From a virus (lineage: Duplodnaviria > Heunggongvirae > Uroviricota > Caudoviricetes), in IMG/VR virus record IMGVR_UViG_2690316325_000023: DNA of 19,876 bases, one strand, 5' to 3'. The position numbers and the translations under genes were made by a program. A model generated the notes under the pieces. It worked only from the letters and a program-made list of their open reading frames with translations. It was not told where the DNA came from and made no database searches. Positions 1,275 to 17,684 of this stretch are shown here, piece after piece; the stretch's first letter is position 1, and each line of letters begins with the position of its first letter.

Positions 1275-1349
1275 TGGAGCACCTCAAAAACACCATCATA
1301 CACTAAATCAGTAAGTTGGCAGCATCACCAAACTGTTGAGGTTTCTACT

Positions 1350-2588
1350 TTATAAAGAATTGCTACTTTCTAATTCTGGGTTTCTGGATCTATTTTTACA
1401 ACCTAAATCCGAGTGGTAATTCGGTATATCGTTTGTCAAATCTTGTTTGATAGCATTAATTAAGATCATTATGTCGAATTTATGCATATCGTCGCCCCCT
1501 TCAGACCTTAGATGTTCGGATGTGGTGAGTTGAGTCGCTAATTTGCTGTTTGGCCCCCACACAATATTATTTTCGAATTTTCCTTCATGCATTCTGTTAT
1601 TATATATACAGTATTGTCTAATGTTTAATGCACTGGCTAAATGTACAATGGCAGTATCTACAGTTATAACAAAATCAGCATGGCGAACCAATGCAAATGA
1701 ACATCCGGCATCAGAAAATGGAGATAGAGACACATTATCCAATCCATTGTGATTAATCTGTTTTCCCATATTAAAAACTATTGTGTGATATCCCTTAAGG
1801 TTATTAAGGTAAGCTAGTACTTTGTTTATCTGTTCATCAGATAAGGTTCTGCTATTCTGAGAGCCATAAGGGTTAAATATAACTAATTTTTTGTTTTTCT
1901 TCCTGAATTCATTTGCAACAATATTTGCTGGTTCATATATTTTGTTGTCAAAATTAAGCGCTGCAGCATAATTATTATTTTTTATCTTTAGTAAAGATAA
2001 AACTTTTTTCATTCTTTCAGATGTGTGAATGGAACGATTATCGATTATATTTGTATCAAAAATAGTTACGGCAGGATGATTAAAACAGATAGAGTGTTTA
2101 GGTCTAAGTAAATGTAGTGTTTGCAATCTGGTTATCGCTGTGTTATCAAAATTTGAGAAGTCAACAACAAGATCTACATTCAGTTTTTTTATCTTTGCTT
2201 TTAGTTCGTTAAATTTATTTTTCTCGTAAGATATAAAGGCATCCACGCCAACAATATCAGTAAAGAGGAATGATACTCTTGAAGGTGCTATCACATATAC
2301 CACCATACCGGATTTTTGAAGTTGTTTAATAAACCCTGAGGTAACGATGCCGTCACCAATGGCTTGCATGTGCATGAAAATGCACACTGTTTTATAACTA
2401 TCCGGCTGTAATGATGTTTTCCTTCTGTATCGCATTTTTAGAAATGCCAGTCTGGCCTTCGTCTTTATCTTTTTTGTTTTAATATTTCGCTGTCTGTTAA
2501 GCTGTTTTAATGATGAAATAACATTCATAATGGTACCCTGAAATTCCAAATCACACATGTCATCCGAAATGAGCAGGGTACTATACAA
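1350..2588 (-). CDS. Glycosyltransferase family 9 (ADP-heptose:LPS heptosyltransferase-like) protein; accessory cargo gene
   Basis: The translation carries GT9 signatures: an N-terminal KTVCIFMHMQAIGDGIV segment (compare WaaC MRVLIVKTSSMGDV) and a C-terminal FVITVDTAIVHLASAL segment (compare WaaC FVVSVDTGLSHLTAAL). About 30% GC versus about 55% in the phage genes. The true start is probably an internal Met (for example MRYRRK..., near 2435), since the first ~50 codons look like a low-complexity extension. Confidence 0.6.
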   Translation of the reverse strand: MYSTLLISDDMCDLEFQGTIMNVISSLKQLNRQRNIKTKKIKTKARLAFLKMRYRRKTSLQPDSYKTVCIFMHMQAIGDGIVTSGFIKQLQKSGMVVYVIAPSRVSFLFTDIVGVDAFISYEKNKFNELKAKIKKLNVDLVVDFSNFDNTAITRLQTLHLLRPKHSICFNHPAVTIFDTNIIDNRSIHTSERMKKVLSLLKIKNNNYAAALNFDNKIYEPANIVANEFRKKNKKLVIFNPYGSQNSRTLSDEQINKVLAYLNNLKGYHTIVFNMGKQINHNGLDNVSLSPFSDAGCSFALVRHADFVITVDTAIVHLASALNIRQYCIYNNRMHEGKFENNIVWGPNSKLATQLTTSEHLRSEGGDDMHKFDIMILINAIKQDLTNDIPNYHSDLGCKNRSRNPELESSNSL

Positions 2589-2622
2589 AAAACTGGACTA
2601 CAATGGTTTGAAATGAAAGCCT

Positions 2623-3222
2623 TTATGCTTGTTTACTCCTTGATTCCACTGGGGAAGCTGGCCACTCAATATCCGGTGCTCTTGATGTATCAACACGGTT
2701 CAGCAGCACTCGATACTTCTTCCAGGCTTCCAGCAACGAGATTTCTTCCTCCGTTGCGATTTCCAGATCTACAGCATCCTGAAGTGGCGCAATATGCTCA
2801 CTGGCTACCTGCATCAGGCTGTTTTTTGTTTCTTCTGCCTCCCGGATCCGGAACAGTTTTTCTGCTTCCGTATCCTTCACCCAGGCTGTGCCGTTCCACT
2901 TCTGATATTCCCCTTCCGGCGACGACCAGGTAACATTTTCCGGTAACGGACCGAGTTCAGAAATAAATAACGCGTCGCCGGAAGCCACGTCATAAACCGT
3001 TTTACCACGATGATCTTCAACGAGATGCCAAGACGCCCCATCACTGTTGAAAACAGCCACGAAGCCAGCTGGAATATCTGGCGGAGCAATATCAGTACTA
3101 TTTGCAGGCAGACCTGTATGAGGTGGAATGTATGCATCATCTTCACCAATAAATTCATTGGTTCCGACCAGCAGATTATAAATTTTTATGGTTCGTGGTT
3201 GTTCACTCATTCTGAATGCCAT
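2623..3222 (-). CDS. G: Tail fibre assembly chaperone (P2 gpG-like)
   Basis: Position immediately after tail fibre gene with TAATG stop/start overlap at 3220-3224; size and N-terminal sequence consistent with P2 G family. Confidence 0.8.
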
Positions 3223-5333
3223 TATGCAAGCCTCACAATATAGTTAAATGCGATGTTTTTTACGGTGTTTTCCGCGTTGCCATAAGCGGCAATGGTAATG
3301 GTGTGTGTGTGCGAACCAATAGCGAGCGTATGTGTATGCGCACCTATTGCTACTGTGTGAGTATGAGCTCCTGCGCTTAATACGCGATTACTTGCTGCCT
3401 TGCTTGTGTTAGTTGCATGCATTCCACCACCGGTACCGGGAGTTTCTGCGTATGCTGAAGTATTGTTGTAAGCAAAGTTGTGTGTATGTGCTCCGGTGTT
3501 ATTTGTGGATTTAGTTCCGTAATCAAACGACGATGTGGTTTTCGTCCCCAAATCCGTACTGGATGCGCTGGCGCTGTGGGTGTGCGATTTAATGCCGTCC
3601 TGTTCCTGAGACAATACGGCCCGACCACTGGCAGGTTTGCCCTTAATCGTCCAGCCACGCATATCAGGGATCACGCCTGACGGATAAGCGACTGCAAGTT
3701 TCGGGTAGGCAGATTTGTCAAAAGTCTGCCCCTGCATCAGGGCATAACCAGACGGAACGGTATCCGATGGCCACGGGATTGGTGCGCCAGGCGGATAAAA
3801 CTGCTCTGATGGCGTATAGAGTGAATAAACTGTACCGTCCGTTAACCCTTCCGGCTTATTAGCAGAATATGCTGGTGACGTATGAATCGTCACGCTGGCA
3901 TTACTGGTATAATCCCATTGAATATTTACACCAGTCGCATAATTTCCGATTGCAACGTAAATATCGTAAGTATCACCAGATGTATTGACCCAGGCAAAAT
4001 TTGTAAACCCTGCCGATGTGCGCTGCCATAAAGCACCAGTAATCCCCTTCGGATTACCATTACCTGCACGCAAAACAATTTCAGATATACCTGCCTGTTG
4101 AGGTGAACCGACGTTATATCCAGCGCCACCAATCAACGTAATTGAAACAACAGAACTCGCCTGTGGCATGGTTACCGTTGCTAATTTGAACCAACCAGCA
4201 CCACCTCTGAATGACATTGTTGTTGAGTTAAGCGTACCAATATCTTTCGGTGTCAGTGTTATATCCGCTGAAAGCGCCTTACCATTCACCTTACGGGCAG
4301 AAGGTACCCGACCATTCGCATTGTCATTAGCTGCTTTCACTGCTTTCGGTGTCGCAGCAAGCGTTTCAGATGCGCTGTTAGTCGCGCTGCTTAGCTGGAC
4401 AATTCCTTTTTGTGCTGTCGTAGCGTCCTGAGCGGTATATTTCCCGTTAGCAAGGTCATAGGCTGCCTTTACCGACTTTGGCGTTGCCGCCAGCGTTTCA
4501 GACGTGCTGTTGGTGGCGCTACTGAGCTGGACAAGGCCTTTCCGCGCTGTGGTGGCATCCTGCGCAGTATATTTCCCGTTAGCAAGGTCATATGCTGCCT
4601 TTACCGCCATTGGTGTTGCCGCCAGCGTTTCTGAATCGCTGTTGGTGGCGCTACTGAGCTGGACAAGTCCTTTCCGCGCTGTAGTGGCGTCCTGTGCGGT
4701 ATATTTCCCGTTAGCAAGGTCATAGGCTGCCTTGACCGCTTTCGGCGTTGCGGCCAGTGCTTCAGACGTGCTGTTGGTGGCGCTACTGAGTTGAACAAAG
4801 CCTTTTGCAGTCAGCGAGGCGTCCGGGTGACGTCGTGACTGTTCATGCTCTTTCAGTTTGTCATCCACGTAATCCACTGTGGCCATCACCATGGTGTTAT
4901 CCACGGTAAGCGCCACGGTGGCCGTGCTGGATACGGTCAGAATGGTGCGAAATGTTTGTGCACGTCCGGACCCTTCGGCAACGGTTGGTTTGTAACTTTC
5001 GGCAGTATTGCCCACCGCGATTAAATCGCCGTGCTCATCAAATACACCAATTTCCCGGATCCAGAATCCGCCCGTTTCAGGAGGAATAACCAGCTCTGCA
5101 ATAATGCGGTTCTGATGTGTTGCGTCCAGGATGACGCGATTAACAGTGTGTCGCCACACCTCATGCACAAGACGGGTCTGCTTACTGTCTGGCGAGGGCA
5201 ACGTGCCGCCGCCGTCACCCACGGCCATGTGAGTCAGGCGGACCGGTTTACCATCTGGTGTGGCTGCCTGCGCTAATTTTTTTTCACCCGTATCGGTGAT
5301 AACGGTTTTAAATTTTCGTGTTGTGGTACTCAT
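3222..5333 (-). CDS. H: Tail fibre protein (P2 gpH-like) with internal 44-aa tandem repeats and a His-rich C-terminal tip
   Basis: 703 aa; N-terminal ~170 aa typical of P2 H. Four (3.7) tandem 44-aa repeats [44 protein letters not shown]. C-terminus has GAHTHT / SHTHT His-x-His repeats typical of fibre tips. Confidence 0.9.
4314..4802 (-). repeat. 132-bp in-frame tandem repeat array (about 3.7 copies) inside tail fibre gene H
   Basis: The motif cccgttagcaaggtcata recurs at about 4443, 4575 and 4707 (period 132 bp), matching the 44-aa protein repeat. Confidence 0.85.
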
Positions 5334-5335
5334 GC

Positions 5336-5866
5336 TTAATCGTCCGGATAAATGGTAATGACTTCACCGTCGTAAGTTGCTGCCGCCGCGAAAATATCCC
5401 CCGGAATTTCCTGAATGATATTCAGCCCTGTCATGTGGCGGCTGACCGGGCGGGCATCAGCAATCAACCGCTCCATTTCCAGATACATTTCCTCCGTCAC
5501 GCCACTGTCCAGCGTGCCGACTTCAACGGTAAATGTTCCCGGTTCTCCGCCGAACTCCCACCACTCAGACACGCGAATGAGGTATCCCAGCGGCTCAATG
5601 GCCCGGCGCAGTGCGCTGATGGTTCCTTTGTGTCGGTGTATCAGCCATGCATCACGAATCACCTGTCGCTTTGTCTCTTCCGGCCAGTTGCGATCCCAGC
5701 GGTCAACGGAAAATGCCCAGGCGAGATAAGGCAGCAGATGCACCGGGCAGGTGTCCGGTGACCACAGCGTGTTGAGGTCTACCGGGATGTCTGTAATGCG
5801 CGCTCCGACAGCTTCGGCGCAACGCATGAAATTGCTGGCTGATGGCGGTAACAGTGAATTACTCAT
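5336..5866 (-). CDS. I: Baseplate/tail protein (P2 gpI-like)
   Basis: Translation from the internal Met (MSNSLLPP...) gives 176 aa, the P2 gpI length; gene order J-I-H. The ORF track's longer 187-aa version (to 5899) would overlap J more extensively. Confidence 0.8.
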
Positions 5867-6755
5867 TACGCCCACCTTCGCTGATGGTGAATGACTCACA
5901 GCGCGCCGCCTGTATGTCGCTGATGGCCATATTCTGTGTGGGTTCGATTATCTCCACGCGTTGCACACCGTGCACATGCAGTGCGGCAGCAATGGCGGAC
6001 AACGCCACGTCCTGACCGATAAGCCCCTGCTCAGCCAGCCACTTCCTGAACGACGATTCAGCTGCGGCCAGAATAGGTTCGGATTCCGGGCCGGGGTAAA
6101 AGTACAGTTTTGCATTCAGCCGCCATGTCACGATTCTGGCGCTCTGTACCGTCAGGCGGTCGGCCACCGGGCGGGTATCCTCTGCATTCAGAACGGCGCG
6201 AACGGTATTAAGCAACGCCTCCGTTGCTGTGCCGTCGCCTTCAGTGGACAGGATGGAAACCGTCACATTGGCCGGAGACGGACTGATAGCCCGCGCATCA
6301 CGCACCAGACCGCTGGCGCTGCGGGCAAAATACTCGTATGCACCTGACGGGCCAGCAACACTCAGGCCGTCGTACGCCCGCTGCGCCCGCAGTCTAAGCG
6401 AGGTGTCGCTCTCCATCACCGCGTCGGTGGTATCCGTTGCCGGAGTGATAACCAGGCGCTTTGTGTTCATATTGCCCGCGAGGTTGTCCAGGTCTGTCCC
6501 GGCGCTGTGGCTTAACATGCAGGCGCGTGCACCCTCATTGACCCGCTGGCGTAACAGCATTTCACGAAACGCTGTTGTCTGGGCGATAACGTTAAGGGGT
6601 TCCGATTCCAGCTCCAGCGCGGCGGAAACGGCTTCACGCTGTTCGGCGGGATAGGACGCAATCATCATGGCTTTTGTGTCAGCCAGAATTGCTTCAAAGT
6701 CAGGCTCCGCGATGATGGCGGGTTCCGGTAACTGGGAAAGGTCAACGGCGGGCAT
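5859..6755 (-). CDS. J: Baseplate assembly protein J (P2 gpJ-like)
   Basis: 298 aa, position between W and I, sequence character of the P2 J family. Confidence 0.88.
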   Translation of the reverse strand: MPAVDLSQLPEPAIIAEPDFEAILADTKAMMIASYPAEQREAVSAALELESEPLNVIAQTTAFREMLLRQRVNEGARACMLSHSAGTDLDNLAGNMNTKRLVITPATDTTDAVMESDTSLRLRAQRAYDGLSVAGPSGAYEYFARSASGLVRDARAISPSPANVTVSILSTEGDGTATEALLNTVRAVLNAEDTRPVADRLTVQSARIVTWRLNAKLYFYPGPESEPILAAAESSFRKWLAEQGLIGQDVALSAIAAALHVHGVQRVEIIEPTQNMAISDIQAARCESFTISEGGRNE

Positions 6756-6758
6756 GAT

Positions 6759-7109
6759 TTACTCCCTCAGCGTGATGGTTAATTCAACATTCTGCATGGT
6801 CTGCATGACAGTGCCCGACAGCGTCACCCCGGCGCGGCCTCCTGCCTTCCAGACAACGTCGATGGCGTCCAGGGCAATGCGGGGTTCCCATCGTGTCAGT
6901 GCAATCACGGCAGCACTCATGCATTGCAGACGCGTGGTGTTATTCATGGGTTCGTCAATCAAATCAGGCAAAAGGCTGCCATATTCCCGTCGCATAACCC
7001 GGCTTGCCAGCGGGGTGGTCAGGATGTCCCTGACTGACTGTTTCAGGTGCTCCATATCGTTCAGGTTTCCCGTCCCGTCCGGGTTCATTCCTGTGTAGCG
7101 GGTTGTCAC
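6759..7109 (-). CDS. W: Baseplate protein W (gpW/gp25 family)
   Basis: 116 aa; P2 gpW is 115 aa; sits between V and J. Confidence 0.88.
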   Translation of the reverse strand: MTTRYTGMNPDGTGNLNDMEHLKQSVRDILTTPLASRVMRREYGSLLPDLIDEPMNNTTRLQCMSAAVIALTRWEPRIALDAIDVVWKAGGRAGVTLSGTVMQTMQNVELTITLRE

Positions 7110-7687
7110 TGCGGGCCTCCTGTCGAATCGCTGCCACCTTTAACGCCACCGTGCTTATGTGTATGCACTGTGATGCCGTTTGAGGTGAAATTGCCGCCGC
7201 TGTGCGTGATATTGCCGCTCATCTTTCCCCCTTTTGTGACGTCAAGCGTCGCCGTTCTCAGAAGGTTTGTGCATTCCACGACGGGCGTGTCCAGTGTCAC
7301 GCTGACGGATGCCTGCAGGCTGGCTGTTTTCATGCCGCTGGCGCTCAGTGCGCCTGCGTCCGCGTCGTAGCGGAACACCGCGCCATCCGGCGCGCTGACC
7401 ACGATTTCTTTCAGGCTTTTGCCGGGGGCCGGACTGGCATCACTCCACAGGCTGCCAATTATCATGGCGGTTTCCGGGTTGCCGCCGATGCAGGCAATGA
7501 CCACCTGTTCGCCGGGTGATGGCGGCAGCCACACATTGAAGGCTCCCGCGCGCGTGGTGTTCCAGCGTAACCAGCCTGTTTCCAGTTCGCCGCTGCGAAC
7601 GCGCACGCACCAGGACTTCTCATCAACTTCAGAGATGATCCCGGTGCGGATGACATTGCTCAGCAGTCGCATGAGTTCTGCGCTCAC
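7106..7687 (-). CDS. V: Baseplate central spike protein V (P2 gpV-like)
   Basis: 193 aa with Gly-rich C-terminus; 4-nt overlaps with S and W as in P2 late operons. Confidence 0.88.
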   Translation of the reverse strand: MSAELMRLLSNVIRTGIISEVDEKSWCVRVRSGELETGWLRWNTTRAGAFNVWLPPSPGEQVVIACIGGNPETAMIIGSLWSDASPAPGKSLKEIVVSAPDGAVFRYDADAGALSASGMKTASLQASVSVTLDTPVVECTNLLRTATLDVTKGGKMSGNITHSGGNFTSNGITVHTHKHGGVKGGSDSTGGPQ

Positions 7688-8328
7688 CGTACAGCCTCCG
7701 CAATCCGGCCCAGCACCGTGTTATAAATCAGGCGCTCATCTGCCTGGCTGATACCCAGCAGCTCACGTACCGGGTAATCGGTGAAAATGCCCGGCGCAAC
7801 CTGATCGCGCTCACCGAACTGATGAACGCGTGCAATACGTGCGGCCACGCCGCTGTAACCCACCGTCACACCGGAAGCATCTGCACGGGTTTTCAGGTAG
7901 CGGGCGGTGCGCAGTTTTACGAACATGGGGACGCGCCTGGTGCTGTCCTGGTTGATGCGCCGGGTGCGTATTTCCAGAAAACGGTCGATGTCATCCCGGT
8001 AAAACGTGCGGATATTGTTTTTATCCTCATCCCACCCGGTAATGGTTCGCCCGTATTTCCCCGTGTCGTGATGCCAGTTTTTCAGCGTGCGTGCTTCGTT
8101 ATTCCAGATAAAGCGAATGCGTTCCTGTATCCGGGTTACGCGGCGTCTGCGTGGTGTCCACGCGGTCCCGTCCGGCGCTTTCTGTGACCGGATACGCGCC
8201 TGCTGGGCGCGGCGTAAATCCTGTGCCAGCTTTCTGGCGATGTTATTGATGGCCTGCTGATTCAGGCTGTCGCGGATGGCCTCAAAGGTTTCATCCACGC
8301 GGGTGAATGCCTTATCCATCGCTTTCAC
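7684..8328 (-). CDS. S: Tail completion / virion morphogenesis protein (P2 gpS-like), longer than P2 S
   Basis: Position between R and V. At 214 aa it is longer than the ~150 aa I recall for P2 S, so identity rests mainly on synteny. Confidence 0.6.
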   Translation of the reverse strand: MKAMDKAFTRVDETFEAIRDSLNQQAINNIARKLAQDLRRAQQARIRSQKAPDGTAWTPRRRRVTRIQERIRFIWNNEARTLKNWHHDTGKYGRTITGWDEDKNNIRTFYRDDIDRFLEIRTRRINQDSTRRVPMFVKLRTARYLKTRADASGVTVGYSGVAARIARVHQFGERDQVAPGIFTDYPVRELLGISQADERLIYNTVLGRIAEAVR

Positions 8329-8779
8329 CCCACGTCACATCCTGGAATACATGCGACCAGTCGCCTTCGGAAGAGGGCAGACGGGGTTTTGGCTCCGGCA
8401 GGTGTTCTGCCTGCGGTGTGCCCTGACTGTTGCGCGTGATGCGAACGCGTTCCCGCAGGGGGAGCGTAAACAGGAGGTCGGCGCTGTCATCGTCATTGAT
8501 AACGGCGGAGAATTTGATGTCCTGATTACGCTCAGGGTTGAGCAGCAACTGTGGCTGATTTTCGGATAACCACGCCAGCAGCGGCAGCGTGAGGTCATCC
8601 AGCTCCCCGGCGTAATCCATGACAAACATCACCATCTGATAGCGGTAAACAAACGAGGGCGTTTCTCCGGTCGTTTCAATGTTGCCGCTCTCCACGAAAA
8701 TGGTGAATTTTTCCGGGTTGGCCTGACACCATCGGCATGAACGGGTCATGGCTTCACGCAGGGAATCAGTTTTCAGCAT
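8312..8779 (-). CDS. R: Tail completion protein R (P2 gpR-like)
   Basis: 155 aa, same length as P2 gpR; MLKTDSLR... N-terminus and LLAWL.ENQP motif resemble P2 R. Confidence 0.8.
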   Translation of the reverse strand: MLKTDSLREAMTRSCRWCQANPEKFTIFVESGNIETTGETPSFVYRYQMVMFVMDYAGELDDLTLPLLAWLSENQPQLLLNPERNQDIKFSAVINDDDSADLLFTLPLRERVRITRNSQGTPQAEHLPEPKPRLPSSEGDWSHVFQDVTWGESDG

Positions 8780-9086
8780 GGTTGTTGTCCTCGTTGTTCA
8801 GTCGTTGCAGCCTGCGCTGTTCCAGTAATTCAATGGCCCGTTTATCCGCGTTACAGGTTTCCAGTGCATCCAGAAGGCGGTCGCCCCATATACCGAGATT
8901 TCCCCATGTGGGAGTGTCAGGGAAGGGGGGAGGCGTTACCGGTATGGTCAGCGTCTGCGGTATAAGCCGGACTGACGGCGCTGGCCGTGGCGCGTTCTGC
9001 GTGCCTGCGCAACCTGTCAGTAAAACGAGCGTCAGGCAAAGCGTGGGCGCATTCATCTTTTGCAATATCGTTGCGTAGCTGTTCAC
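8766..9086 (-). CDS. lysC: Outer-membrane spanin (Rz1 / LysC-like lipoprotein), overlapped with lysB
   Basis: Signal peptide with lipobox LLTGC followed by a proline-rich mature region; starts inside the i-spanin gene in another frame and extends past it. Confidence 0.75.
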   Translation of the reverse strand: MNSYATILQKMNAPTLCLTLVLLTGCAGTQNAPRPAPSVRLIPQTLTIPVTPPPFPDTPTWGNLGIWGDRLLDALETCNADKRAIELLEQRRLQRLNNEDNNHAEN

Positions 9087-9324
9087 GTCTGGCCTCTCCG
9101 TCCTGATTGCGTTGCTGATTTTCCGCGCGGAGTTGTGCCAGCACCTGCTGCATATCCTGTACCCCGGCGCTGATGATATTCAGGGTGTCGACGGTACTTT
9201 TCAGGGTGCTGGCCTGCGCTTCGTTTCTGGCGTTCTCCCGGCCCAGTGACCACGACAGACGCATGGATGCTCCCCAGGCGGCAATCAGAAGAAAAGCGAC
9301 GCCCAGCGTGGGCCAGAGCTTCAT
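8917..9324 (-). CDS. lysB: Inner-membrane spanin (Rz / LysB-like)
   Basis: From the internal Met MKLWPTLGVAFLLIAAWG: N-terminal TM helix then a charged, coiled-coil-like region. Its ATG overlaps the endolysin TGA (ATGA at 9321-9324). The ORF track's upstream extension is probably not translated. Confidence 0.75.
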   Translation of the reverse strand: MKLWPTLGVAFLLIAAWGASMRLSWSLGRENARNEAQASTLKSTVDTLNIISAGVQDMQQVLAQLRAENQQRNQDGEARREQLRNDIAKDECAHALPDARFTDRLRRHAERATASAVSPAYTADADHTGNASPLP

Positions 9325-9713
9325 GCCGGATAAACTCCGTGCGGTAACTGAAAATGCGGTCCGTCTTTCAGGGTCTTCCAGTCGCCGCCCCATTCCACCG
9401 GAATATTCAGTTCCCGGCTGGCCTGTCTGAATGCTGCTGCGATTTTTTCGTACAGCGGCCATTCCCATGACACCTGGCTGCCGACATAAGCCACAACATC
9501 CACGGCATGCCCCGTAAGGTGGCGGCTGTTCATGGTCTGGCTCTTACCCGTGGCCACAAGTTGCTTCTGGCGGTAACGGCTGCGCAACCCTTCGGTGATA
9601 CCAAAATCCACTTCCGAAATTTCCAGTGCCCGTCGGGTCACTTTCACCAGCTCAGGATTTACGCCCTGCAAATTCTTTTCGCTCCGGCTGCTGAATTTAA
9701 ATGTGTTGCTCAT
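9321..9713 (-). CDS. Endolysin, peptidase M15 family (L-alanyl-D-glutamate peptidase-like)
   Basis: 130 aa with the zinc-peptidase motif SRHLTGHAVD and a downstream EWGGDW...H segment; located between holin and spanins. Confidence 0.8.
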   Translation of the reverse strand: MSNTFKFSSRSEKNLQGVNPELVKVTRRALEISEVDFGITEGLRSRYRQKQLVATGKSQTMNSRHLTGHAVDVVAYVGSQVSWEWPLYEKIAAAFRQASRELNIPVEWGGDWKTLKDGPHFQLPHGVYPA

Positions 9714-10033
9714 TCGTCCTTCTCCTTCACCCTGCGATTAAAGGCCGCAATAACCTTGTCGCGTGCTTTCTCTGCCCCCATAAAACCGATTGATGCGCCG
9801 ATAAACGTCACGGCATCTTCAGGAAAACCGAAGAAGCGCAACGACCCGGCCACGGCCATGGCGAGAACGCCGCACGCCAGCGATCCCGTTACGGTCTGAA
9901 CCAGTGTTCGTCCGTCATAAAGACTCATCAGCGCGGAAATGCTGACCGCCGCGCCTGCTGCATACACCGTTGGCAGGTGGTCAAAGAGCCATGCAATAAC
10001 CTGCTCTGTGATCCCTGTTTGAATGGTGTTCAC
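9710..10033 (-). CDS. Holin (three predicted TM segments)
   Basis: Probable GTG start with GGGGGGAG Shine-Dalgarno 5 nt upstream, directly after the X stop. The 107-aa product has three hydrophobic stretches and a charged C-terminal tail (RRVKEKDE). The ORF track's 180-aa version overlaps X and is unlikely. Confidence 0.65.
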   Translation of the reverse strand: MNTIQTGITEQVIAWLFDHLPTVYAAGAAVSISALMSLYDGRTLVQTVTGSLACGVLAMAVAGSLRFFGFPEDAVTFIGASIGFMGAEKARDKVIAAFNRRVKEKDE

Positions 10034-10035
10034 TG

Positions 10036-10236
10036 CTACTCCCCCCACAACTGAATCATTTCTCGTTTCTTCTTCTCCGGCTCCGGCATCTCCACGTCCT
10101 GCCCGGCGTCCAGAAATACCTGCTGACAGAGTCCGGGGTTGGCATCCAGCACCTTTTCGGTGACGCCCTGCGTCGTGCCGTAGTACCGGAAACAGAGCGA
10201 ATCCACGGTGTCGCCTTCCAGTGCCTTCACTTTCAT
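10036..10236 (-). CDS. X: Tail protein X (P2 gpX-like)
   Basis: From the internal Met (MKVKALEGDTVDSLCFRYYG...) gives 66 aa resembling P2 X; ATG overlaps the L stop (TGATG). Confidence 0.8.
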   Translation of the reverse strand: MKVKALEGDTVDSLCFRYYGTTQGVTEKVLDANPGLCQQVFLDAGQDVEMPEPEKKKREMIQLWGE

Positions 10237-10739
10237 CAGCACAACTCCGCAAAGATTCGCGGGCGGCACAGAATGTCAGAGATGGCCCAGCTCACATCGC
10301 GCCACAAATCTGATGTCTGTATATCCAGTGCGTCCGCCCGGCGGTCGCCCTTGTCCGTTGTGTCCGCATCGCGGTAACGCTCCAGAATCAGGGCGCGTGT
10401 GGCGGTATAAACAGCATTGCGCCAGTGCCAGAGATTGACGCTTTCTCCGTTAATTACGGGTGCCGGAACATCGGCCAGCGTCTGATGGCCAGCCGCCTGC
10501 TGTTCCTGCTGCCATGCTTCCAGCTCGCGGGTAACGTGAGCCACCGCCCCGGTGGCGGTATGCAGCAGGCGGGAGGTGGTCACACGGCCCGGCAGTCGTA
10601 CCGCCAGACGCAGCTCACGCAGCACAATATCCGGCCAGAATGCGCCCGCTGAAATACGGGTATCACCATCATCGGTATCGGTGATGTCGTCCTCTGCGGG
10701 TCCGGGGTTGGTTCTGGCAACCATACTCATGGGGTTCAC
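10236..10739 (-). CDS. L: Head completion protein L (P2 gpL-like)
   Basis: 167 aa; position after the terminase small subunit M; size matches P2 L (169 aa). Confidence 0.85.
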   Translation of the reverse strand: MNPMSMVARTNPGPAEDDITDTDDGDTRISAGAFWPDIVLRELRLAVRLPGRVTTSRLLHTATGAVAHVTRELEAWQQEQQAAGHQTLADVPAPVINGESVNLWHWRNAVYTATRALILERYRDADTTDKGDRRADALDIQTSDLWRDVSWAISDILCRPRIFAELC

Positions 10740-10743
10740 TCCT

Positions 10744-10816
10744 GAAAAAAATCGGGCGGTGGGTGCGCGGTGTAAACGGTCACGGAGTCAAACCGGAACA
10801 CCGCGCACGCCGCCCG
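10744..10816 (-). terminator. Terminator/attenuator-like interrupted hairpin plus U7 tract between M and L
   Basis: Plus-strand tcgggcggtgggtgcgcggtg (about 10751-10771) pairs with caccgcgcacgccgcccg (about 10799-10816); on the minus strand the stem is followed by TTTTTTT (plus-strand A7 at about 10744-10750) and then the L Shine-Dalgarno AGGAG. Confidence 0.35.
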
Positions 10817-10832
10817 CTGACGGGGTCAGTCG

Positions 10833-11633
10833 TTAACCGCGCTTCGCCTTCTGCGTCGCGGTGGTTTTTCGTGTTGCAGGCTTCCGCGTTGTCTTTTTAC
10901 TTTTGCTGCTTTCGTCCTGCGCCTGCTGTGCGCTGGCGTCTTCTGGTGCGGCTGCGGAATCGGCTTTTTTCAGGGCGCGGGAAAGGGTTGCAATCTCGCG
11001 TTTCACACCTGCGTTCGGGTTCAGGTGCATTGCTTCGCGCAGCAGCTTCAGTGACAGTGCCATGCTGTCCGCATCGCTCAGGCCACGGCGGGCAAAGGCG
11101 CACGCCTTGCATAATTTGGCGCGCACTTCGTCCGGCATGTCCTGGTCGGTGACAATCTCCCGGAGGGTATCCAGTGGTTCGATAAAGGCGGACAAATCCG
11201 CGTCGGCATCCGTCCCGGCCTGCGTCAGTACCGGGTTGCAGATTTCTTCGGTCAGCACTGTGGCAGCAGTACGGCCAAAGTTATCCGGCATAATGAGGTT
11301 ATGACGGACCACATACGCACCAATACGCAACGCCAGCGGAAGATCGCCGCAGTCAATCGCCCACACCATCAGCGTGGCAATCACTTCATCCTGCTGCCCG
11401 CCGTCAGCCTCCAGCGTTCCCTCAATCCAGCCGGAAAAATCCGGCAACAACTCTTTTTTGATGGCGGCTTTCGCGCTTCTGGCCTGTACGCCCTTAAGCC
11501 GGGCCTGTGCCAGACGCAGACGATACAGCACCTCTTCATGCGCGGTACGCGCGGCGTGGTCCACGCCTTCATTCGCCCGGCCTGCGCGCTGTGCCATCAC
11601 GTTCTGCCAGTGTTGCTGTGCAGGAGTAATCAT
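10833..11633 (-). CDS. M: Terminase small (endonuclease) subunit M (P2 gpM-like)
   Basis: 266 aa, basic Lys/Arg-rich C-terminal tail; position between N and L. Confidence 0.88.
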   Translation of the reverse strand: MITPAQQHWQNVMAQRAGRANEGVDHAARTAHEEVLYRLRLAQARLKGVQARSAKAAIKKELLPDFSGWIEGTLEADGGQQDEVIATLMVWAIDCGDLPLALRIGAYVVRHNLIMPDNFGRTAATVLTEEICNPVLTQAGTDADADLSAFIEPLDTLREIVTDQDMPDEVRAKLCKACAFARRGLSDADSMALSLKLLREAMHLNPNAGVKREIATLSRALKKADSAAAPEDASAQQAQDESSKSKKTTRKPATRKTTATQKAKRG

Positions 11634-11678
11634 TGTTTCTCTCCGTTACAGGCGGGCATGATGCCCGCCGTGAGTTGA

Positions 11679-12731
11679 TTAGCTGTCGGCGAACTTCAGG
11701 CCAGTGACCATCGCGCACTTGCCATAGTCTTCAACGACATAAGCGTCATTGATGGACTGGTAGGTGGCGATGCGGTTGTATTCCGGCTCGTCTTTCATCA
11801 GGCGACGCATTGAACCTTTCTGCCAGTAAATCGACAGGTTGTTGAACGAGGTGATCAGCATCGTTGCATCCGGGAAGAACGGCGCAAGGAACACACCCAG
11901 CCCGCCAATGGTGCGCGATGACAGGATGAGCTGCCCGGCGAGTAATTCCGCATTGGGATTCTGGCCGCTGATGCTGTTCAGCACGGGCAGACGCAGCGAG
12001 TTAAACAGGTTGCGCCCCATAATCACCACGAGGTCGTCAGCTTCCTTGTGCCATTCATCCAGCAGGGATGAGCGTGCGTCCTGAACCAGTGCATCAGCAT
12101 TCGCATACTTACCCGCGTGCGCCACGGTGTTGTCCATGTTGCGGGAGGTCAGCGTCACGTCATTCATTACGCGCGCGCTGGCATTGGTTCTGATGTGCTC
12201 CAGCCACCCCACGTTAACGTCCTGAAGCAGCTTGTTGGTGCTGAAGTTGGATTTTTCCGCGTGTGACGTGCCGTTAAAGCCGATCATGATGCGGTCAAGC
12301 GCCACCTGTCGGGCAATCTGTGCGCTGATGCGGGTCTGGAAGTCATTGTGCGCCGCCCAGGCATCAAGCTGCGGATACGAAATAAACGTGTCGTAGTTCA
12401 CCTGCTCACACTGGTACTGACGGGACTTCAGGTCGACAGCGTTAATCGGGTTGCGGCGATCTGTGCCGTCATAACTGGTATTTGTGCGCGCAATCGGCCC
12501 GGTGGTGTCCATGAGGACTTTTTCGCCTTTCTGGTCGGTCACACCGATCACGTTAATTTTTTTTGTAAGTTCGGTGCTATCCTTTGAGGCGTTTTCAAAA
12601 CGCTGCTGCACCGCGGGTTCCACGGTAAATCGCGATACCAGTCCAGAAACCGGGATATTGTTAATCGACGCCTGTCGCGTCATGTAGCAGCCCAGCTTGT
12701 TACGGGCATTATCTGACATCACCAGATTCAT
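11679..12731 (-). CDS. N: Major capsid protein N (P2 gpN-like)
   Basis: 350 aa; motifs KFTVEP, ARVM, MLITSFNNLSIYW and YVVEDY align with what I recall of P2 gpN. Confidence 0.93.
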   Translation of the reverse strand: MNLVMSDNARNKLGCYMTRQASINNIPVSGLVSRFTVEPAVQQRFENASKDSTELTKKINVIGVTDQKGEKVLMDTTGPIARTNTSYDGTDRRNPINAVDLKSRQYQCEQVNYDTFISYPQLDAWAAHNDFQTRISAQIARQVALDRIMIGFNGTSHAEKSNFSTNKLLQDVNVGWLEHIRTNASARVMNDVTLTSRNMDNTVAHAGKYANADALVQDARSSLLDEWHKEADDLVVIMGRNLFNSLRLPVLNSISGQNPNAELLAGQLILSSRTIGGLGVFLAPFFPDATMLITSFNNLSIYWQKGSMRRLMKDEPEYNRIATYQSINDAYVVEDYGKCAMVTGLKFADS

Positions 12732-12754
12732 AAAAAATTTGCTCCTTTGTCTTA

Positions 12755-13624
12755 TCAGAAGTCAGCCAGCTGGTCGGAGGCTGCGCCCGTTGCGGTGAAC
12801 CGGTTCTGCGGATCGCCGTCCTGCGTGCGCAGTTTTTCCTTCAGTGCTGTCAGCTCTGTGGTCAGCGAAGTGATTTTCTGGCTGTCCTGCTGATGGTGGG
12901 TTTCCAGTGCATTAAAACGGTCGATAATGTCGGCCTGTGATGTTGCGACACCTTCCACCGCTTCCTGAATACGGGAGAAACTGGCGTCATCCGCTTTGCG
13001 GCCACGGCCAATAATCCCCATAACGCGGTTAAACCACTGGGTGCCTTCTTCCTGACGTTGTTCGGTGAGTTCGATAAGTTCTGACTCCATAGCGGCGGTA
13101 AACATCGCCACGTCTCCCTGCTGACAGTTGAATGTCATCAGTTGCATACGTTGTTGTGCCGCAAAGGCCAGACGTTCCGTGCCCAGGCTGGCGGGGGTGT
13201 CGGTCATTGCCAGCCCGCGCAGGTAAGGGCCTCCCGTGATGGTTGACTGTGGTTCCAGCTCAATACTGGAGTAAATTTTTTTACCATCGTTAAGCAGGGA
13301 CATCATGCGAGCGGTCGGCTCAATTTCGGCATACAGTGCCGTGCGGCCTGCCAGCGGGCCATCGGTTATGTCTTCGGTGCTCAACCCCACAACATCGCCC
13401 ATAGCGGAAAACTCGCTGCCGGGGAGTGGTGACAGGATGTGCTCAATATTCACACGTGCACCATAAACGGACGGGTTATAACTGGTGGCGGCAGCTTTCA
13501 GCATGTCGCCGTTGATTTCGCGCCCGTCTGCCGTCACACCGGAGACAGCCACGCGAAACTTTTTGCGGGATGTCTTTTTTTCATTAGTCATAGTTTTTGC
13601 CCCTCTGACTGGTTCTTCAGTCAT
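12755..13624 (-). CDS. O: Capsid scaffolding protein O (P2 gpO-like)
   Basis: 289 aa; first gene of the leftward late operon, divergent from P; AAGGAG Shine-Dalgarno of N directly downstream. Confidence 0.9.
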   Translation of the reverse strand: MTEEPVRGAKTMTNEKKTSRKKFRVAVSGVTADGREINGDMLKAAATSYNPSVYGARVNIEHILSPLPGSEFSAMGDVVGLSTEDITDGPLAGRTALYAEIEPTARMMSLLNDGKKIYSSIELEPQSTITGGPYLRGLAMTDTPASLGTERLAFAAQQRMQLMTFNCQQGDVAMFTAAMESELIELTEQRQEEGTQWFNRVMGIIGRGRKADDASFSRIQEAVEGVATSQADIIDRFNALETHHQQDSQKITSLTTELTALKEKLRTQDGDPQNRFTATGAASDQLADF

Positions 13625-13745
13625 GATGGCAAAGCGTAACAGGCTGATACAAAGGGCTTTTGTTGTAAGAAAACGGCCAGAACAGGGGGTTAAGGAGAAC
13701 GGTTTCGCGCGCGGGTAATCTTCCTGTAATTACTCAGGGGGAGCA
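13625..13745. promoter_or_regulatory. Divergent late-operon control region between O and P (expected activator-dependent late promoters)
   Basis: 121-bp intergenic region between divergent O and P, as in P2 where Ogr-dependent promoters sit here. Contains a TGTTGT...ACA partial dyad (about 13661-13684) and the GGGGGAG Shine-Dalgarno of P. No promoter mapped with certainty. Confidence 0.4.
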
Positions 13746-15497
13746 ATGATTCAGGACGCTTTTGTGCGCCAGCGTGCGCGGCAACTTTACTGGCAGGGTT
13801 ATCCGCCCGCAGAAATATCACGTCTGATGGGAATAAACCCGAACACGATTTATGCGTGGAAAAAACGCGACCAGTGGGATGAAACACCACCCGTGCAGCG
13901 TGTCACGCAGTCCATCGATGCGCGCCTCATCCAGCTTACTGAAAAACAGAATAAAACAGGTGGTGACTTCAAGGAAATAGACCTGCTGACCCGGCAGCTT
14001 AAAAAACTGCATGATGGCCAGCCGGATGCGACGGCCACAGGAAAGAAAAGCCGGGCGAAAAAACTCAAAAATCATTTCACGCCGGAACAGATTGCCGCAC
14101 TGCGGGAAAAAATCATCAGCAGGCTGGAGTGGCATCAGCGGGGCTGGTTTGACTCTCTGACCCTTTGCAGGGAAGCCGGGATACGTAACAGGATGATCCT
14201 GAAATCCCGACAGATTGGAGCGACATGGTATTTTGCACAGGAAGCACTGCTGATGGCGCTGCGTGACGATGTGGCGCAACCTTACCAGCGTAACCAGATT
14301 TTTTTGTCTGCGTCGCGTCGTCAGGCGTTCCAGTTTAAAAGCATTATTCAGAAGGCTGCATCTGAAGTTGATGTGGAGCTGAAAGGGGGCGATAAAATCA
14401 TCCTCTCCAACGGCGCAGAGCTGCATTTTCTTGGTACTTCTGCTGCGACGGCACAGTCCTACACGGGCAATTTTTATTTTGATGAATTTTTCTGGGTCAG
14501 TCGCTTTGCTGAACTGCGCAAGGTGGCTGGCGCTATGGCAACCCTCAGCGGACTGCGGCGCACCTACTTCTCCACGCCATCCACCGAAACGCACGAGGCA
14601 TACGCCTACTGGAACGGCGACCGCTGGAACGAGAAAAAGGCCACGCATAAACGCCAGCGTTTTTCTGTTGACTGGAAAACGCTGCATAACGGGCTTATCT
14701 GCCCTGACCGGACGTGGCGGCAAATTGTCACGCTGGAAGATGTGGTTAATCACGGCTGGAAACACACCGATATCGACGAAATTCGTGATGAAAACACCGA
14801 AGACGAGTTCCTCAATCTCTATATGTGTGAGTTTGTCCGCGAAGGGGAATCGGCATTTAACCTGAATATCCTGATTGGCTGCGGTGTTGACGGATACGAC
14901 GACTGGAAAGACTGGAAACCTTTTGCTCCCCGCCCGATGGGGAATCGTCCGGTATGGATTGGGTATGACGCAAACGGCAGCAGTGGCAACGGCGACAGCG
15001 GCGCTGTGTCCGTGGTGGTTCCTCCGGCTGTTCCTGGTGGCCGTTTTCGAACGGTGGAGACGCGACGCGTTCAGGGGCTGGAGTTTGAAGAACAGGCCAG
15101 AGTCATTGAAGAGTTCACGTGTCGCTACAACGTGGAACACATCGGCATTGATGTGACGGGCGGGAACGGGGAGGCTGTTTATCAGATAGTGAAGCGGTTT
15201 TTCCCTGCTGCTATTCCGTACACCTTCACGCTGTCATCCAAACGGTCGCTGGTACTGAAAATGCTGCAAATAATGCGTGCCGGACGGTGGGAATACGATC
15301 GCGCCGAACGCGAGCTGGTCGCGGCCTTTAACGCCGTGCGTAAGGTGAAAACACCGGGCGGCTTTATCACTTACGAAACGGACCGCGCGAGGGGGATCAG
15401 CCACGGCGACCTTGCGTGGGCAACCATGCTTGCTGTCATTAACGAACCAATTGGCGGCGAAGGAGAAAACGAGCGTTTCACGGTTATGGAGTTCTGA
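13746..15497 (+). CDS. P: Terminase large (ATPase) subunit P (P2 gpP-like)
   Basis: 583 aa; motifs LKSRQIGATWYFA, GAELHFLGTSA, TYFSTPST and DLAWA match the P2 terminase ATPase. Confidence 0.93.
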   Translation: MIQDAFVRQRARQLYWQGYPPAEISRLMGINPNTIYAWKKRDQWDETPPVQRVTQSIDARLIQLTEKQNKTGGDFKEIDLLTRQLKKLHDGQPDATATGKKSRAKKLKNHFTPEQIAALREKIISRLEWHQRGWFDSLTLCREAGIRNRMILKSRQIGATWYFAQEALLMALRDDVAQPYQRNQIFLSASRRQAFQFKSIIQKAASEVDVELKGGDKIILSNGAELHFLGTSAATAQSYTGNFYFDEFFWVSRFAELRKVAGAMATLSGLRRTYFSTPSTETHEAYAYWNGDRWNEKKATHKRQRFSVDWKTLHNGLICPDRTWRQIVTLEDVVNHGWKHTDIDEIRDENTEDEFLNLYMCEFVREGESAFNLNILIGCGVDGYDDWKDWKPFAPRPMGNRPVWIGYDANGSSGNGDSGAVSVVVPPAVPGGRFRTVETRRVQGLEFEEQARVIEEFTCRYNVEHIGIDVTGGNGEAVYQIVKRFFPAAIPYTFTLSSKRSLVLKMLQIMRAGRWEYDRAERELVAAFNAVRKVKTPGGFITYETDRARGISHGDLAWATMLAVINEPIGGEGENERFTVMEF

Positions 15498-16543
15498 TGA
15501 GCAGAAAAAATAAAAAAGTGCGCATGAGTTCACGCATTGATCTCGCTGATGCGCTCAGGAAAGAATCATCGCTCAGTGCATTCACATTTGATGGTCCTTA
15601 TCGCCTGACCGGGCATGACCTGCTGGACAATATGTACTGTGCTGATAACGGGCGGTGGTATGAAACCCCGGTGGACTGGTACGGTCTGGCAAGAGCCGCC
15701 CGGCAAACGTCCTGGCATCAGTCTGCGCTTTACTTTAAGCGCAATGTATTGCTCGGTTGCTACATCCCGCACCCGCTGCTTTCCCGGCAGGATTTCTCGG
15801 CGCTGGCGCTGGACTGGTTTGTGTTCGGTAACGCATTCCTTGAGCTTCGGAGTAATATGCTCGGCGAACCACTTAAATTACGGCACGCACTGGCGAAATA
15901 CGTGCGACGCGGAAGCGATCTTGAATCATGGTGGTATGTGCAGGATGGCAAGGACGCGTTTCAGTTTCGCCCTGGCAAAGTGTGCCACCTGATGAATCCG
16001 GACATTAACCAGGAAATTTACGGCATGCCGGAATATCTTGGCGCATTACTCTCGGCCAGCCTGTCTCATTCGGCGGACATGTTCAGAAAACTGTATTACG
16101 ACAACGGATCCCACGCCGGGTGCATCATCTACATCGGTGCAGCGCAGGTAAACCGCGAAAGCATGGACTCCCTGAAAGAAACGCTACAGGGGGCACGTGG
16201 TGGTGGTGCGTTTAAAAACGTGCTCATTCATGCGCCCAACGGGGGCAAAGAGGGGGTGCAAATTTTGCCGTTCCAGCAGATCACCGCAAAGGATGAGTTC
16301 ATGAATGTTAAGGCGGCATCCCGTGATGATGTGCTGGCTGCGCACCGCGTTCCGCCGCAACTGATGGGGGCGATGCCGGGCGAAAAAAGTGCGTTTGGTG
16401 ATGTGGAGAAGGCCGCGCGGGTTTACGCAATTAACGAGCTGATGCCCGTCATGGAGGCCATGAAGCACATCAATGACTGGCTTGGCGAAGAGGTGATCCG
16501 CTTTAACCCTTACGCACTGTTAGATACCCAGCCCACATCCTGA
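15497..16543 (+). CDS. Q: Portal protein Q (P2 gpQ-like)
   Basis: 348 aa (P2 Q is 344 aa); start overlaps the P stop; last gene before the probable cos region. Confidence 0.88.
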   Translation: MSRKNKKVRMSSRIDLADALRKESSLSAFTFDGPYRLTGHDLLDNMYCADNGRWYETPVDWYGLARAARQTSWHQSALYFKRNVLLGCYIPHPLLSRQDFSALALDWFVFGNAFLELRSNMLGEPLKLRHALAKYVRRGSDLESWWYVQDGKDAFQFRPGKVCHLMNPDINQEIYGMPEYLGALLSASLSHSADMFRKLYYDNGSHAGCIIYIGAAQVNRESMDSLKETLQGARGGGAFKNVLIHAPNGGKEGVQILPFQQITAKDEFMNVKAASRDDVLAAHRVPPQLMGAMPGEKSAFGDVEKAARVYAINELMPVMEAMKHINDWLGEEVIRFNPYALLDTQPTS

Positions 16544-16569
16544 CGCGCTTCGCTTGTCTGCTGCTTCGC

Positions 16570-16594
16570 CGGGGCATAAAAAATTTATGCCCCG
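16570..16594. terminator. Perfect 11-bp-stem hairpin (cggggcataaa-aaa-tttatgccccg) just downstream of Q
   Basis: Palindrome read directly, 26 nt after the Q stop. No clean U tract follows, so its role as a terminator is uncertain; it could belong to the cos/packaging region. Confidence 0.3.
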
Positions 16595-16993
16595 ACTCTC
16601 CAGCTCCTGTATCAGTCAGATAATTTCACGACGCTTTCCTGCTTATTGCCATCATCGACGGTCAGATTCTTACGCAATCCCACTGCGCTGACTGCATGTT
16701 CTCGCCGCCTCAGTGCGATTTTGACGGCCTTACCTTTCACCCCATCAAACCAGAATCCCTCACGTATTTTTCACGCTCAGCGTGAGAAATACGGCCATTC
16801 TGTTGTATCTCTGCGACATCGTTCAGGGAATGCTATTTACCCCCTGAAACGCGGGCTGTTCCCCCGTCACCTGCGCGCAGAAAAAACGCGTTTTTTTGTG
16901 CACGTACGGATCCTTGACGGATCCAGCCACCACGCGGGCCGGAAGTACAAAAAGTCGTTCAAAAAAATTGTGCAAACTTGTGCACTATCGTGC

Positions 16994-17020: not shown

Positions 17021-17029
17021 TCAAAAGTA

Positions 17030-17672: not shown

Positions 17673-17684
17673 GCGCAGATGCTT

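Follow-up and report, generated by a model that had tools for sequence, protein, structure and literature searches.

A P2-type tail fiber gene of an Escherichia coli prophage, assembled from known exchangeable modules and ending in a T4 gp37-type tip

Mosaicism of tail fiber genes is known from P2, T4, lambda, Mu, and P1, in work published since 1989-1992. The P2 genes H and G were the subject of a 1992 paper by Haggard-Ljungquist, Halling and Calendar (J Bacteriol 174:1462), the title of which, as cited in PMC9594776 and PMC13100340, refers to horizontal transfer of fiber genes among unrelated phages. Lambda Stf can functionally take the place of the part of T4 gp37 that recognizes the receptor, according to the account of Montag et al. 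(1989) given in PMC11338833, and functional lambda-P2 fiber chimeras have been built at a junction at P2 aa 251 (PMC11338833). At the distal end of the T4 fiber, the His-x-His motifs of gp37 at residues 883, 915, 929, 966, 980, 989, and 998 match seven crystallographic irons, and the receptor is contacted by residues 932-959 (PMC6957217). At the proximal end, the N terminus of the Mu fiber binds a loop of the wedge protein gp48 (PMC11915804). The fiber gene analyzed here combines parts related to several of these systems and is conceptually nothing new.

The gene, H, occupies positions 3222-5333 on the minus strand of the window, by which we mean the whole stretch of 19,876 nt analyzed (IMG/VR record IMGVR_UViG_2690316325_000023). 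It is an intact open reading frame of 703 codons with a TAA stop at 3222-3224; the interval 3222-4802 given in the preliminary description is too short, the first 177 codons (4803-5333) being missing from it. Its identification as a gpH-type fiber gene was borne out by the Pfam profiles that it matches (PF12571 at the N terminus, PF03406 four times, and PF07484), by matches to PHROG tail fiber families with E values down to 1e-276, and by its neighbors. H lies directly after a Tail_P2_I baseplate wedge gene, I (5336-5899, minus strand; PF09684, E = 4.4e-51), and is followed immediately by the Caudo_TAP chaperone gene G, all on the minus strand and in the order V-W-J-I-H-G, with S further upstream (S-V-W-J-I-H-G) and head genes in the same window. 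NCBIfam has no model for H or G. The true start of I is probably at about 5866, annotated relatives being 176 aa long, and its product is the presumed docking partner of the fiber N terminus. H is an ordinary tail fiber gene of an E. coli P2-family prophage, made of known interchangeable modules, and not a new kind of element. We are highly confident in the overall explanation that 3222-5333 encodes the trimeric tail fiber of a prophage of the Peduoviridae, closest to the P88/Xuanwuvirus group, with four exchangeable modules and a cognate chaperone; it draws on domain families, homologies, breakpoints, copy-number polymorphism, and the co-variation of tip and chaperone.

Hundreds of E. coli assemblies contain proteins that differ from H by one or two residues, and public databases already list this allele as "tail fiber protein".

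The N-terminal module (aa 1-176; 4806-5333, minus strand) matches Phage_tail_fib (PF12571) over aa 6-153 with E = 1.3e-53 and a score of 181 bits (cut-off, 23). By analogy with Mu, this domain would dock the fiber on the baseplate. The similarity to P88 and 503458 extends beyond it: aa 1-298 are 92.6% identical to the H proteins of these phages, and nucleotides 1-869 of the gene are 91% identical to their fiber genes. Further along, the sequence resembles stf-tfa of the P1-like phage JL22, with 92% identity at nucleotides 1092-1824 and 86% at 1963-2676. Neither relative matches between nucleotides 869 and 1092, and nucleotides 1825-1962, which include the apex cassette described below, have no DNA match to JL22. 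The mosaic structure claimed for H is thus confirmed, being P88-like up to nucleotide 869 and JL22-like from nucleotide 1092.

Next to the N-terminal module lie four in-frame 44-aa repeats (4278-4805, minus strand), in units at 4674-4805, 4542-4673, 4410-4541, and 4278-4409. All four were recovered as Phage_fiber_2 stretches by PF03406, a profile of about 42 aa (whole-protein E = 1.9e-75), and an HMM built from the repeat units themselves also found four units in H. The 3.7 copies of a 132-bp repeat reported earlier are what TRF sees (period of 132 bp at 4323-4805, 83% matches, score 636), and we read them as four units of 44 aa in frame. The units are not, as had been stated, nearly identical at the DNA level: units 1-3 are 84-88% identical in pairwise comparison (16-21 differences in 132 positions), with longest exact runs of 26-38 bp in common, and the identity of unit 4 to the other three is only 59-62%. 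Most differences between units are synonymous (10-13 synonymous against 4 nonsynonymous codons per pair), a pattern that may be counted as a sign of selection on the repeats.

The third module, a middle shaft segment between the repeats and the tip (aa 353-498; 3840-4277, minus strand), could be assigned neither to a curated family nor to a credible relative with a solved structure; the sole match of a PDB sequence search with aa 353-505 was the MS2 coat protein (E = 0.002), probably spurious. In a tblastn search with aa 353-703, JL22 stf aligned from query position 2 with 78% identity, and gp37 of some T4-like phages (F2, GRNsp7) from query position 26 (about aa 378) with 57% identity. The GC content of this segment is 44.6%, compared to 52.4% for the whole window.

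From aa 499 to the end (3225-3839, minus strand), H is homologous to the collar and needle of the T4 gp37 tip. The 205 aa of this module (aa 499-703) match PDB 2XGF by phmmer with E = 8.3e-74 and are 65% identical to T4 gp37 aa 801-1026 by BLASTP, with identities of 79.8% and 77.6% in the two stem flanks, and Pfam Collar (PF07484) is found at aa 516-563 (3645-3788; E = 2.5e-11). The tip carries five His-x-His motifs at aa 584, 616, 657, 666, and 675 (3576-3584, 3480-3488, 3357-3365, 3330-3338, and 3303-3311), the last three of which form three consecutive 9-aa His boxes (3303-3365, minus strand). Shuffling of the residues gave a mean of 0.48 such motifs, and five were reached in one of 20,000 shuffles. 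Identity among the three 27-bp boxes is only 59-70% at the DNA level, so that they are a repeat of the protein and not of the DNA. The five motifs align colinearly with the outer five in T4, at residues 883, 915, 980, 989, and 998, the T4 motifs at 929 and 966 having no counterpart in H. The earlier assignment of this region to the metal-coordinating fiber tips is therefore upheld by homology to the needle in 2XGF, from which iron binding and trimer formation may be predicted for the tip of H. An AlphaFold2 model of aa 354-703 (single sequence, monomer) was unusable, with a mean pLDDT of 45 and a pTM of 0.38.

Between the second and third His-x-His lies a variable apex cassette (aa 619-654; 3372-3479, minus strand), which takes the place of the T4 tip subdomain and of the two missing His-x-His rungs. 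It has 36 aa compared to 60 aa in T4, with 39% identity, and differs in sequence and length among alleles that are otherwise nearly identical. The T4 residues 932-959, responsible for specificity toward OmpC and LPS glucose, have no alignment to the apex of H. Since these contact residues are not conserved, the same receptor as that of T4 should not be assumed despite the same fold class, and since the apex differs from that of T4, the receptor cannot be named; by analogy with T4, an LPS core sugar or outer membrane protein is probable.

The chaperone gene G (2623-3222, minus strand) codes for a tail fiber assembly protein of 199 aa of the gpG/Tfa type (Pfam Caudo_TAP, E = 1.1e-43) right beside the tip, its ATG overlapping the stop codon of H (TAATG). 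G is 88% identical to the Tfa of JL22 over the full length, 65% identical to that of P24A7b, and, in an alignment of 178 aa (E = 1e-18), 29% identical to T4 gp38, and resembles G of P2 and P88 over the last 65 aa only. Tip and chaperone gene co-vary, that is, they have been exchanged together, and by analogy with the role of gp38 (PMC9603124) the tip would depend on G for its folding. A scan of 1300-3300 for promoters and terminators gave counts at the level of shuffled sequence, with no terminator on the coding strand after G.

Taking these observations together, we propose that the N-terminal domain docks the fiber on the baseplate wedge and that the four Phage_fiber_2 repeats form a proximal shaft segment. 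The conserved sequence of the repeats would act as a linker for homologous recombination, allowing in-register gain or loss of units and, at the end of the array, the exchange of distal modules. The middle shaft segment would be the third module, followed by the gp37-type tip, in which a collar would precede a six-stranded needle held by metal ions, each bound by the His-x-His of three chains, with five predicted metal sites compared to seven in T4. The short variable apex cassette would cap the needle and contact the receptor, and G, translationally coupled to H, would act as a cognate chaperone of the Tfa/gp38 type that folds the tip and is exchanged along with it.

The number of repeats is not constant among relatives. 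Alleles with 3, 4, 5, and 6 units, represented for example by STEC1585, the allele of the window, GCA_019497305, and P0002, code for proteins of 659, 703, 747, and 803 aa that are otherwise 92-98% identical, and among 62 IMG/VR fibers with the same N terminus the count ranges from 1 to 8, in combination with at least three tip classes. At the DNA level, what is missing from the 3-unit allele is the orthologue of unit 2, whereas one additional hybrid unit is present in the 5-unit allele, both in register. The expectation that copy number changes by recombination therefore holds insofar as counts differ among relatives, but near identity of the DNA as its driver was overstated: with the identities and exact runs given above, the divergence of the repeats is too great for slippage to be frequent. 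Unit number would be expected to alter fiber length, although "more units, longer fiber" is an assumption, given that no solved structure of a Phage_fiber_2 repeat was found.

How the differences in unit number arose can be explained in several ways. Possibly, and we put this forward tentatively, they are by-products of exchange between the fiber genes of co-resident prophages, with the repeat as crossover site, and neither result from unequal crossing-over within the gene nor have been selected for length. The breakpoints lie in or near the array (nucleotide 869 is inside unit 3, and the JL22-like part begins 36 nt past unit 4), unit 1 of the window has 16-18 differences to the first unit in the alleles of 3 and 5 copies and its nearest counterpart is unit 3 of another allele (12 differences), places matching H number 2 (median) and as many as 17 in E. 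coli genomes, and the repeat family is common to P2-like, P1-like, and Mu fibers. Against this, some alleles (P0002, L015) have adjacent identical units, as after a recent tandem duplication. The two routes, within and between genes, are not exclusive, both being homologous recombination. It seems unlikely to us that the array is a selected length ruler, in which alleles of 3-6 units with the same gp37-type tip fit the reach of the fiber to the depth of the O-antigen or capsule; were it so, unit number would be a determinant of host range independent of the tip, and the repeat would be conserved among phages resembling P2, P1, Mu, and lambda because it allows distal modules to stay exchangeable. 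An in-frame tandem repeat with copy-number polymorphism in the population also recalls a fast contingency locus that switches fiber length within a population, but this is very improbable here: the unit is long (132 bp), the units are far from the near identity that frequent copy change calls for, the same 4-unit allele is found on hundreds of contigs, and neither an invertase nor inverted repeats accompany it. An invertible segment of the Gin/Cin/Min type at H was rejected on the same grounds, 1330-5400 having no inverted repeats of at least 16 nt except one short palindrome, and what lies downstream is instead a GT9-like gene and an IS1. A literature search on GT9/heptosyltransferase conversion genes of prophages found nothing relevant.

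The downstream end bears on the state of this particular copy. The end of the GT9-like gene is linked through a complete IS1 (562-1329) to a fragment of a chromosomal TPR-protein gene (1-561) found in 1107 E. coli genomes, and homology to prophages begins only at 1330. The relatives have gpU, tape-measure, tube, and sheath genes at the point where IS1 cuts here. As the cut falls just downstream, right after the gene next to G, the prophage is probably defective, and this copy of H may never enter a virion. On that basis, H could be an intact but unused relic whose features record the history of a functional lineage, as is also suggested by a near-identical copy in strain 165, located in a prophage with a deletion from capsid to I. 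We consider this possible, though less likely than not, because both H and G have their full length and are one or two residues away from alleles in apparently complete prophages, and because an inversion mediated by IS1 is indistinguishable from a deletion where the window ends at position 1; in any case, it concerns the state of this copy and not the identity of the gene. The P2-type tail and baseplate genes in an element that appears degraded could likewise suggest the fiber of a tailocin (phage-tail bacteriocin). This is scarcely credible, since the window has open reading frames where relatives have portal, terminase, scaffold, and capsid genes, and 18.5 kb of it are 96-97% identical to complete P2-family prophages in which portal, terminase, and major capsid genes are annotated.

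The modular fiber that we favor provides a map of natural module boundaries, one where the last Phage_fiber_2 unit ends and two at the His boxes flanking the apex cassette; one of these boundaries is a junction already used in engineered chimeric fibers. The natural series of alleles with the same tip and 3-6 repeats could serve to test whether fiber length matters, and P2- or lambda-based delivery particles could be retargeted with receptor-binding variants taken from the alleles of the apex cassette.

Compared to P2, the locus has the same I-H-G operon position, an N terminus with PF12571 that is 72% identical over aa 7-254, Phage_fiber_2 repeats in H, and a Caudo_TAP chaperone next to it. 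However, P2 H has only two repeats and no His-x-His, similarity ends at P2 aa 251, and the distal 418 aa of P2 H are unrelated to H of the window. Alignment with related H proteins thus agrees with the proposal that the tip has been exchanged relative to P2, and a host range unlike that of P2 would be expected. T4 gp37 (2XGF) and gp38 share with the window the collar and His-x-His needle, with flanks 78-80% identical and an identical 15-residue C-terminal peptide, and an adjacent homologous chaperone, but the window tip has five His-x-His rungs instead of seven and is joined to a P2-type proximal half instead of an 800-aa gp37 shaft. The closest sequenced phage for the distal half is the Punavirus JL22 (ON018986), whose stf-tfa has 74% identity to H aa 342-703 and 86-92% DNA identity on both sides of the apex cassette; it differs in its 630-aa proximal part, which has a single Phage_fiber_2 unit, in its apex cassette, and in having six His-x-His in the needle region and seven in the whole protein. 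For the proximal part, the closest phages are P88 and 503458 (Xuanwuvirus, Peduoviridae), with three Phage_fiber_2 units; their tips, in contrast, have no His-x-His and are switchable, there being a DNA invertase as well as an alternative set of tip and Tfa on the opposite strand. Mu S has a Phage_fiber_2 unit (PDB 5YVQ residues 102-156, E = 2e-8), and the gp37-type tip recurs in many lambdoid side tail fibers (65-83% identity). Mu, a myovirus, belongs to another lineage and lambda is a siphovirus, and lambda Stf/Tfa and Mu S/U differ from H and G in having other N-terminal attachment domains and belonging to other types of virion.

The interval singled out in the preliminary description (3222-4802) falls within one intact minus-strand ORF of 703 aa (window 3222-5333), the fibre gene H of a P2-family prophage, and the adjoining 199-aa Caudo_TAP gene (2623-3222, minus strand) is the chaperone gene G. 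A Tail_P2_I gene lies directly upstream of H and homologues of J, W, V, and S farther up, while on the 3' side the ATG of G overlaps the H stop codon (TAATG). ORFs elsewhere in the window occupy head-gene positions, and positions 1330-19825 are 96-97% identical to Escherichia coli P2-family prophages whose annotation includes portal, terminase, and capsid genes. The conserved N-terminus described earlier is the P2-type fibre N-terminal domain PF12571 (aa 6-153; Pfam, E = 1.3e-53), and it is followed by four repeats of Phage_fiber_2 (PF03406; E = 1.9e-75), a phage tail Collar domain (PF07484; aa 516-563), and a 14-aa match to Phage_fiber (PF03335; aa 579-592) that overlaps the first His-x-His (HxH) motif, the whole protein reaching 21.3 bits against the 20-bit cut-off with no single stretch passing alone. 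In a PDB sequence search, the last repeat matched residues 102-156 of the Mu fibre protein S (5YVQ).

Tandem Repeats Finder recovered the 3.7 copies of a 132-bp period noticed earlier (4323-4805; 83% matches, score 636), which correspond to four in-frame units of 44 aa on the minus strand: unit 1 (aa 177-220; 4674-4805), unit 2 (aa 221-264; 4542-4673), unit 3 (aa 265-308; 4410-4541), and unit 4 (aa 309-352; 4278-4409). However, contrary to what had been stated, they are not nearly identical at the DNA level. Units 1 to 3 share 84-88% of their DNA and 91% of their protein sequence, each pair differing by 10-13 synonymous and 4 non-synonymous codons, and the longest exact runs common to them are 26-38 bp; unit 4 keeps its first ~26 residues but has diverged in the rest (59-62% DNA identity). 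At 84-88% identity, the units do not make the array a slippage-prone switch.

The proposal that copy number can change did hold. By length, the best 120 homologues group at 659, 703, and 747 aa, with 3, 4, and 5 units respectively, and an 803-aa variant has 6; in an alignment of eight representatives, identity to the window protein is 92-98% once the array is left out. DNA-level unit matching found 0-3 differences between alleles in the last unit. The 3- and 5-unit alleles have the same penultimate unit, which departs from that of the window at 10 of 132 positions. No orthologue of unit 2 is present in the 3-unit allele, an additional hybrid unit is present in the 5-unit allele, and unit 1 of the window differs in origin from the first unit of both. 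Every unit change stays in register, and these changes are products of homologous recombination over evolutionary time. Neither repeat number nor tip is fixed among relatives: the 62 complete IMG/VR fibre ORFs with the same N-terminal domain have 1-8 units and carry tips of the P2/Mu/P1 type (32), of the T4 gp37 type with 5-7 HxH (25), or of other types (5). We found no solved structure of the Phage_fiber_2 repeat; unit number would plausibly set fibre length.

The HxH region had been taken for a metal-coordinating fibre tip, and its homology points the same way, aa 499-703 resembling the receptor-binding tip of T4 gp37 (2XGF; E = 8.3e-74, PDB sequence search). HxH counts are in routine use for recognizing such needles (PMC6563267). 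H has five (aa 584, 616, 657, 666, and 675), compared with a mean of 0.48 in shuffled H, where at least five appeared only once in 20000. T4 gp37 has seven (883, 915, 929, 966, 980, 989, and 998), matching the seven iron ions along its needle, with a stem formed by residues 882-931 and 960-1009 and a receptor-contacting tip subdomain at 932-959 (PMC6957217). H is 79.8% identical to it at aa 499-618 and 77.6% at aa 655-703, and retains the counterparts of 883, 915, 980, 989, and 998, whereas T4 residues 918-977 (60 aa, which take in the tip subdomain as well as HxH 929 and 966) are replaced by 36 aa, 39% identical. The needle is therefore predicted to be shorter than that of T4, to have five metal sites, and to differ at its apex. 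This apex cassette (aa 619-654; window 3372-3479) is the sole strongly variable part among otherwise near-identical alleles; in some of them it is longer, with 6-7 HxH, and others have a 10-aa duplication. The latter is a tandem duplication in the ascending needle strand of two homologous fibre proteins (P0103 and P0002; alignment A1, columns 684-693), which also have a different apex cassette and 6 HxH; it resembles the small in-tip duplications reported to widen T4 host range.

G shares 88% identity with Tfa from JL22, a P1-like phage, 65% with that of Peduovirus P24A7b, which likewise has a gp37-type tip, and 29% over 178 aa with T4 gp38, a protein required for gp37 folding and not present in the T4 virion (PMC9603124). 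Only its last 65 aa match the G proteins of P2 (43%), P88 (45%), or, weakly, 503458 (26%). Judged by these sequence comparisons, the chaperone travels together with the tip. The sequences themselves show which modules H has, their homologies and breakpoints, the polymorphism, and the linkage of tip and chaperone. From the families named, we infer that the N-terminal domain would dock on the wedge protein, by analogy with the Mu fibre, which docks on a loop of gp48 (PMC11915804); the repeats and middle segment would make up a trimeric shaft, G would fold the needle, metal ions held by HxH triplets would stiffen it, and the apex cassette would bind the receptor. The fold class and way of working of the tip can be inferred with confidence, but not its receptor.

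Immediately 3' of G is a glycosyltransferase family 9-like gene (1350-2588, minus strand) with weak matches to LPS heptosyltransferase I and RfaQ, in a PHROG family without known function. It is a candidate LPS-core-modifying lysogenic-conversion gene. It occurs in 7 of 80 related IMG/VR loci, all with a gp37-type tip and the same G type, a linkage that may be mere adjacency. Two related loci with the same 703-aa fibre (L015, 2261-3163, and L027, at the corresponding position) carry between H and G a gene, absent from the window, for a 300-aa Macro-domain protein (Pfam, E = 7.7e-19), whose C-terminal tail has two His boxes, as though acquired by recombination at the His-box region of the fibre. 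In O157:H7 LSU61 and O55:H7 DEC5B, the final part of the H match overlies what RefSeq annotates as a macro domain-containing protein.

After the glycosyltransferase-like gene comes a complete IS1 (562-1329; InsA ORF 999-1274, InsB ORF 577-1080), and beyond it (1-561) a fragment of a chromosomal TPR-protein gene present in 1107 E. coli genomes, where related prophages have instead gpU, tape-measure, tube, and sheath genes. IS1 thus seems to have truncated or rearranged this prophage, which is probably defective or rearranged. A fibre gene 99.6% identical to H at the DNA level is housed in an internally deleted prophage of E. coli strain 165 (L004), in which a truncated major capsid gene is fused to a truncated gene I (11024-11998); thus, the lineage is often degraded, with H and G staying intact. 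The window prophage also has cargo that is unusual for an integrated prophage: genes for a ParM actin-like segregation protein (18001-18960) and for a ParR-like protein of the Plasmid_stab_B family (17685-17996), right beside a perfect tandem repeat of two 21-bp copies (17628-17670), possibly a parC-like centromere.

That H is mosaic is correct but ordinary. All domains are curated families, and public databases already contain proteins one or two residues from H, labelled as tail fibre or phage tail proteins, with about 200 contigs each for some of them. That P2, T4, lambda, Mu, and P1 have exchanged fibre parts is a classical finding, reportedly described by Montag et al. in 1989 and Haggard-Ljungquist et al. 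in 1992. The gp37-type tip class is widespread: the distal 350 aa match 854 phage records by tblastn, with T4-like phages, lambdoid side tail fibres, other Peduoviruses, and P1-like phages among the matches listed. A mosaic H has been described in the P2 relative L-413C (PMC7460101).

Gene nucleotides are counted here from the ATG at window 5333 and continue into G. In the proximal half, P88 and 503458 (Xuanwuvirus) come closest among sequenced phages: their fibre genes share 91% identity with nt 1-869, so that the first breakpoint falls in repeat unit 3. The part similar to stf-tfa of JL22 begins 36 nt beyond unit 4 (nt 1092-1824, 92%; nt 1963-2676, covering the last part of H together with G, 86%), and nt 1825-1962 had no match to JL22 in the DNA comparison. 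As expected from the preliminary description, the tip is not that of P2, whose H contains two repeats, lacks HxH, and is unrelated over its distal 418 aa; its 72% aa similarity to the window protein ends at aa 254, that is, P2 residue 251. Functional lambda-P2 chimeric fibres are joined at this same residue (PMC11338833), and the natural and engineering boundaries therefore coincide. In P88 (L007, 6355-7634) and 503458 (L008, 6051-7876), the opposite strand encodes an alternative fibre tip with a Tfa, and in 503458 these are followed by a DNA invertase gene, which makes a Mu/P1-type tip switch. Unlike this switchable arrangement, H of the window has a fixed gp37-type tip.
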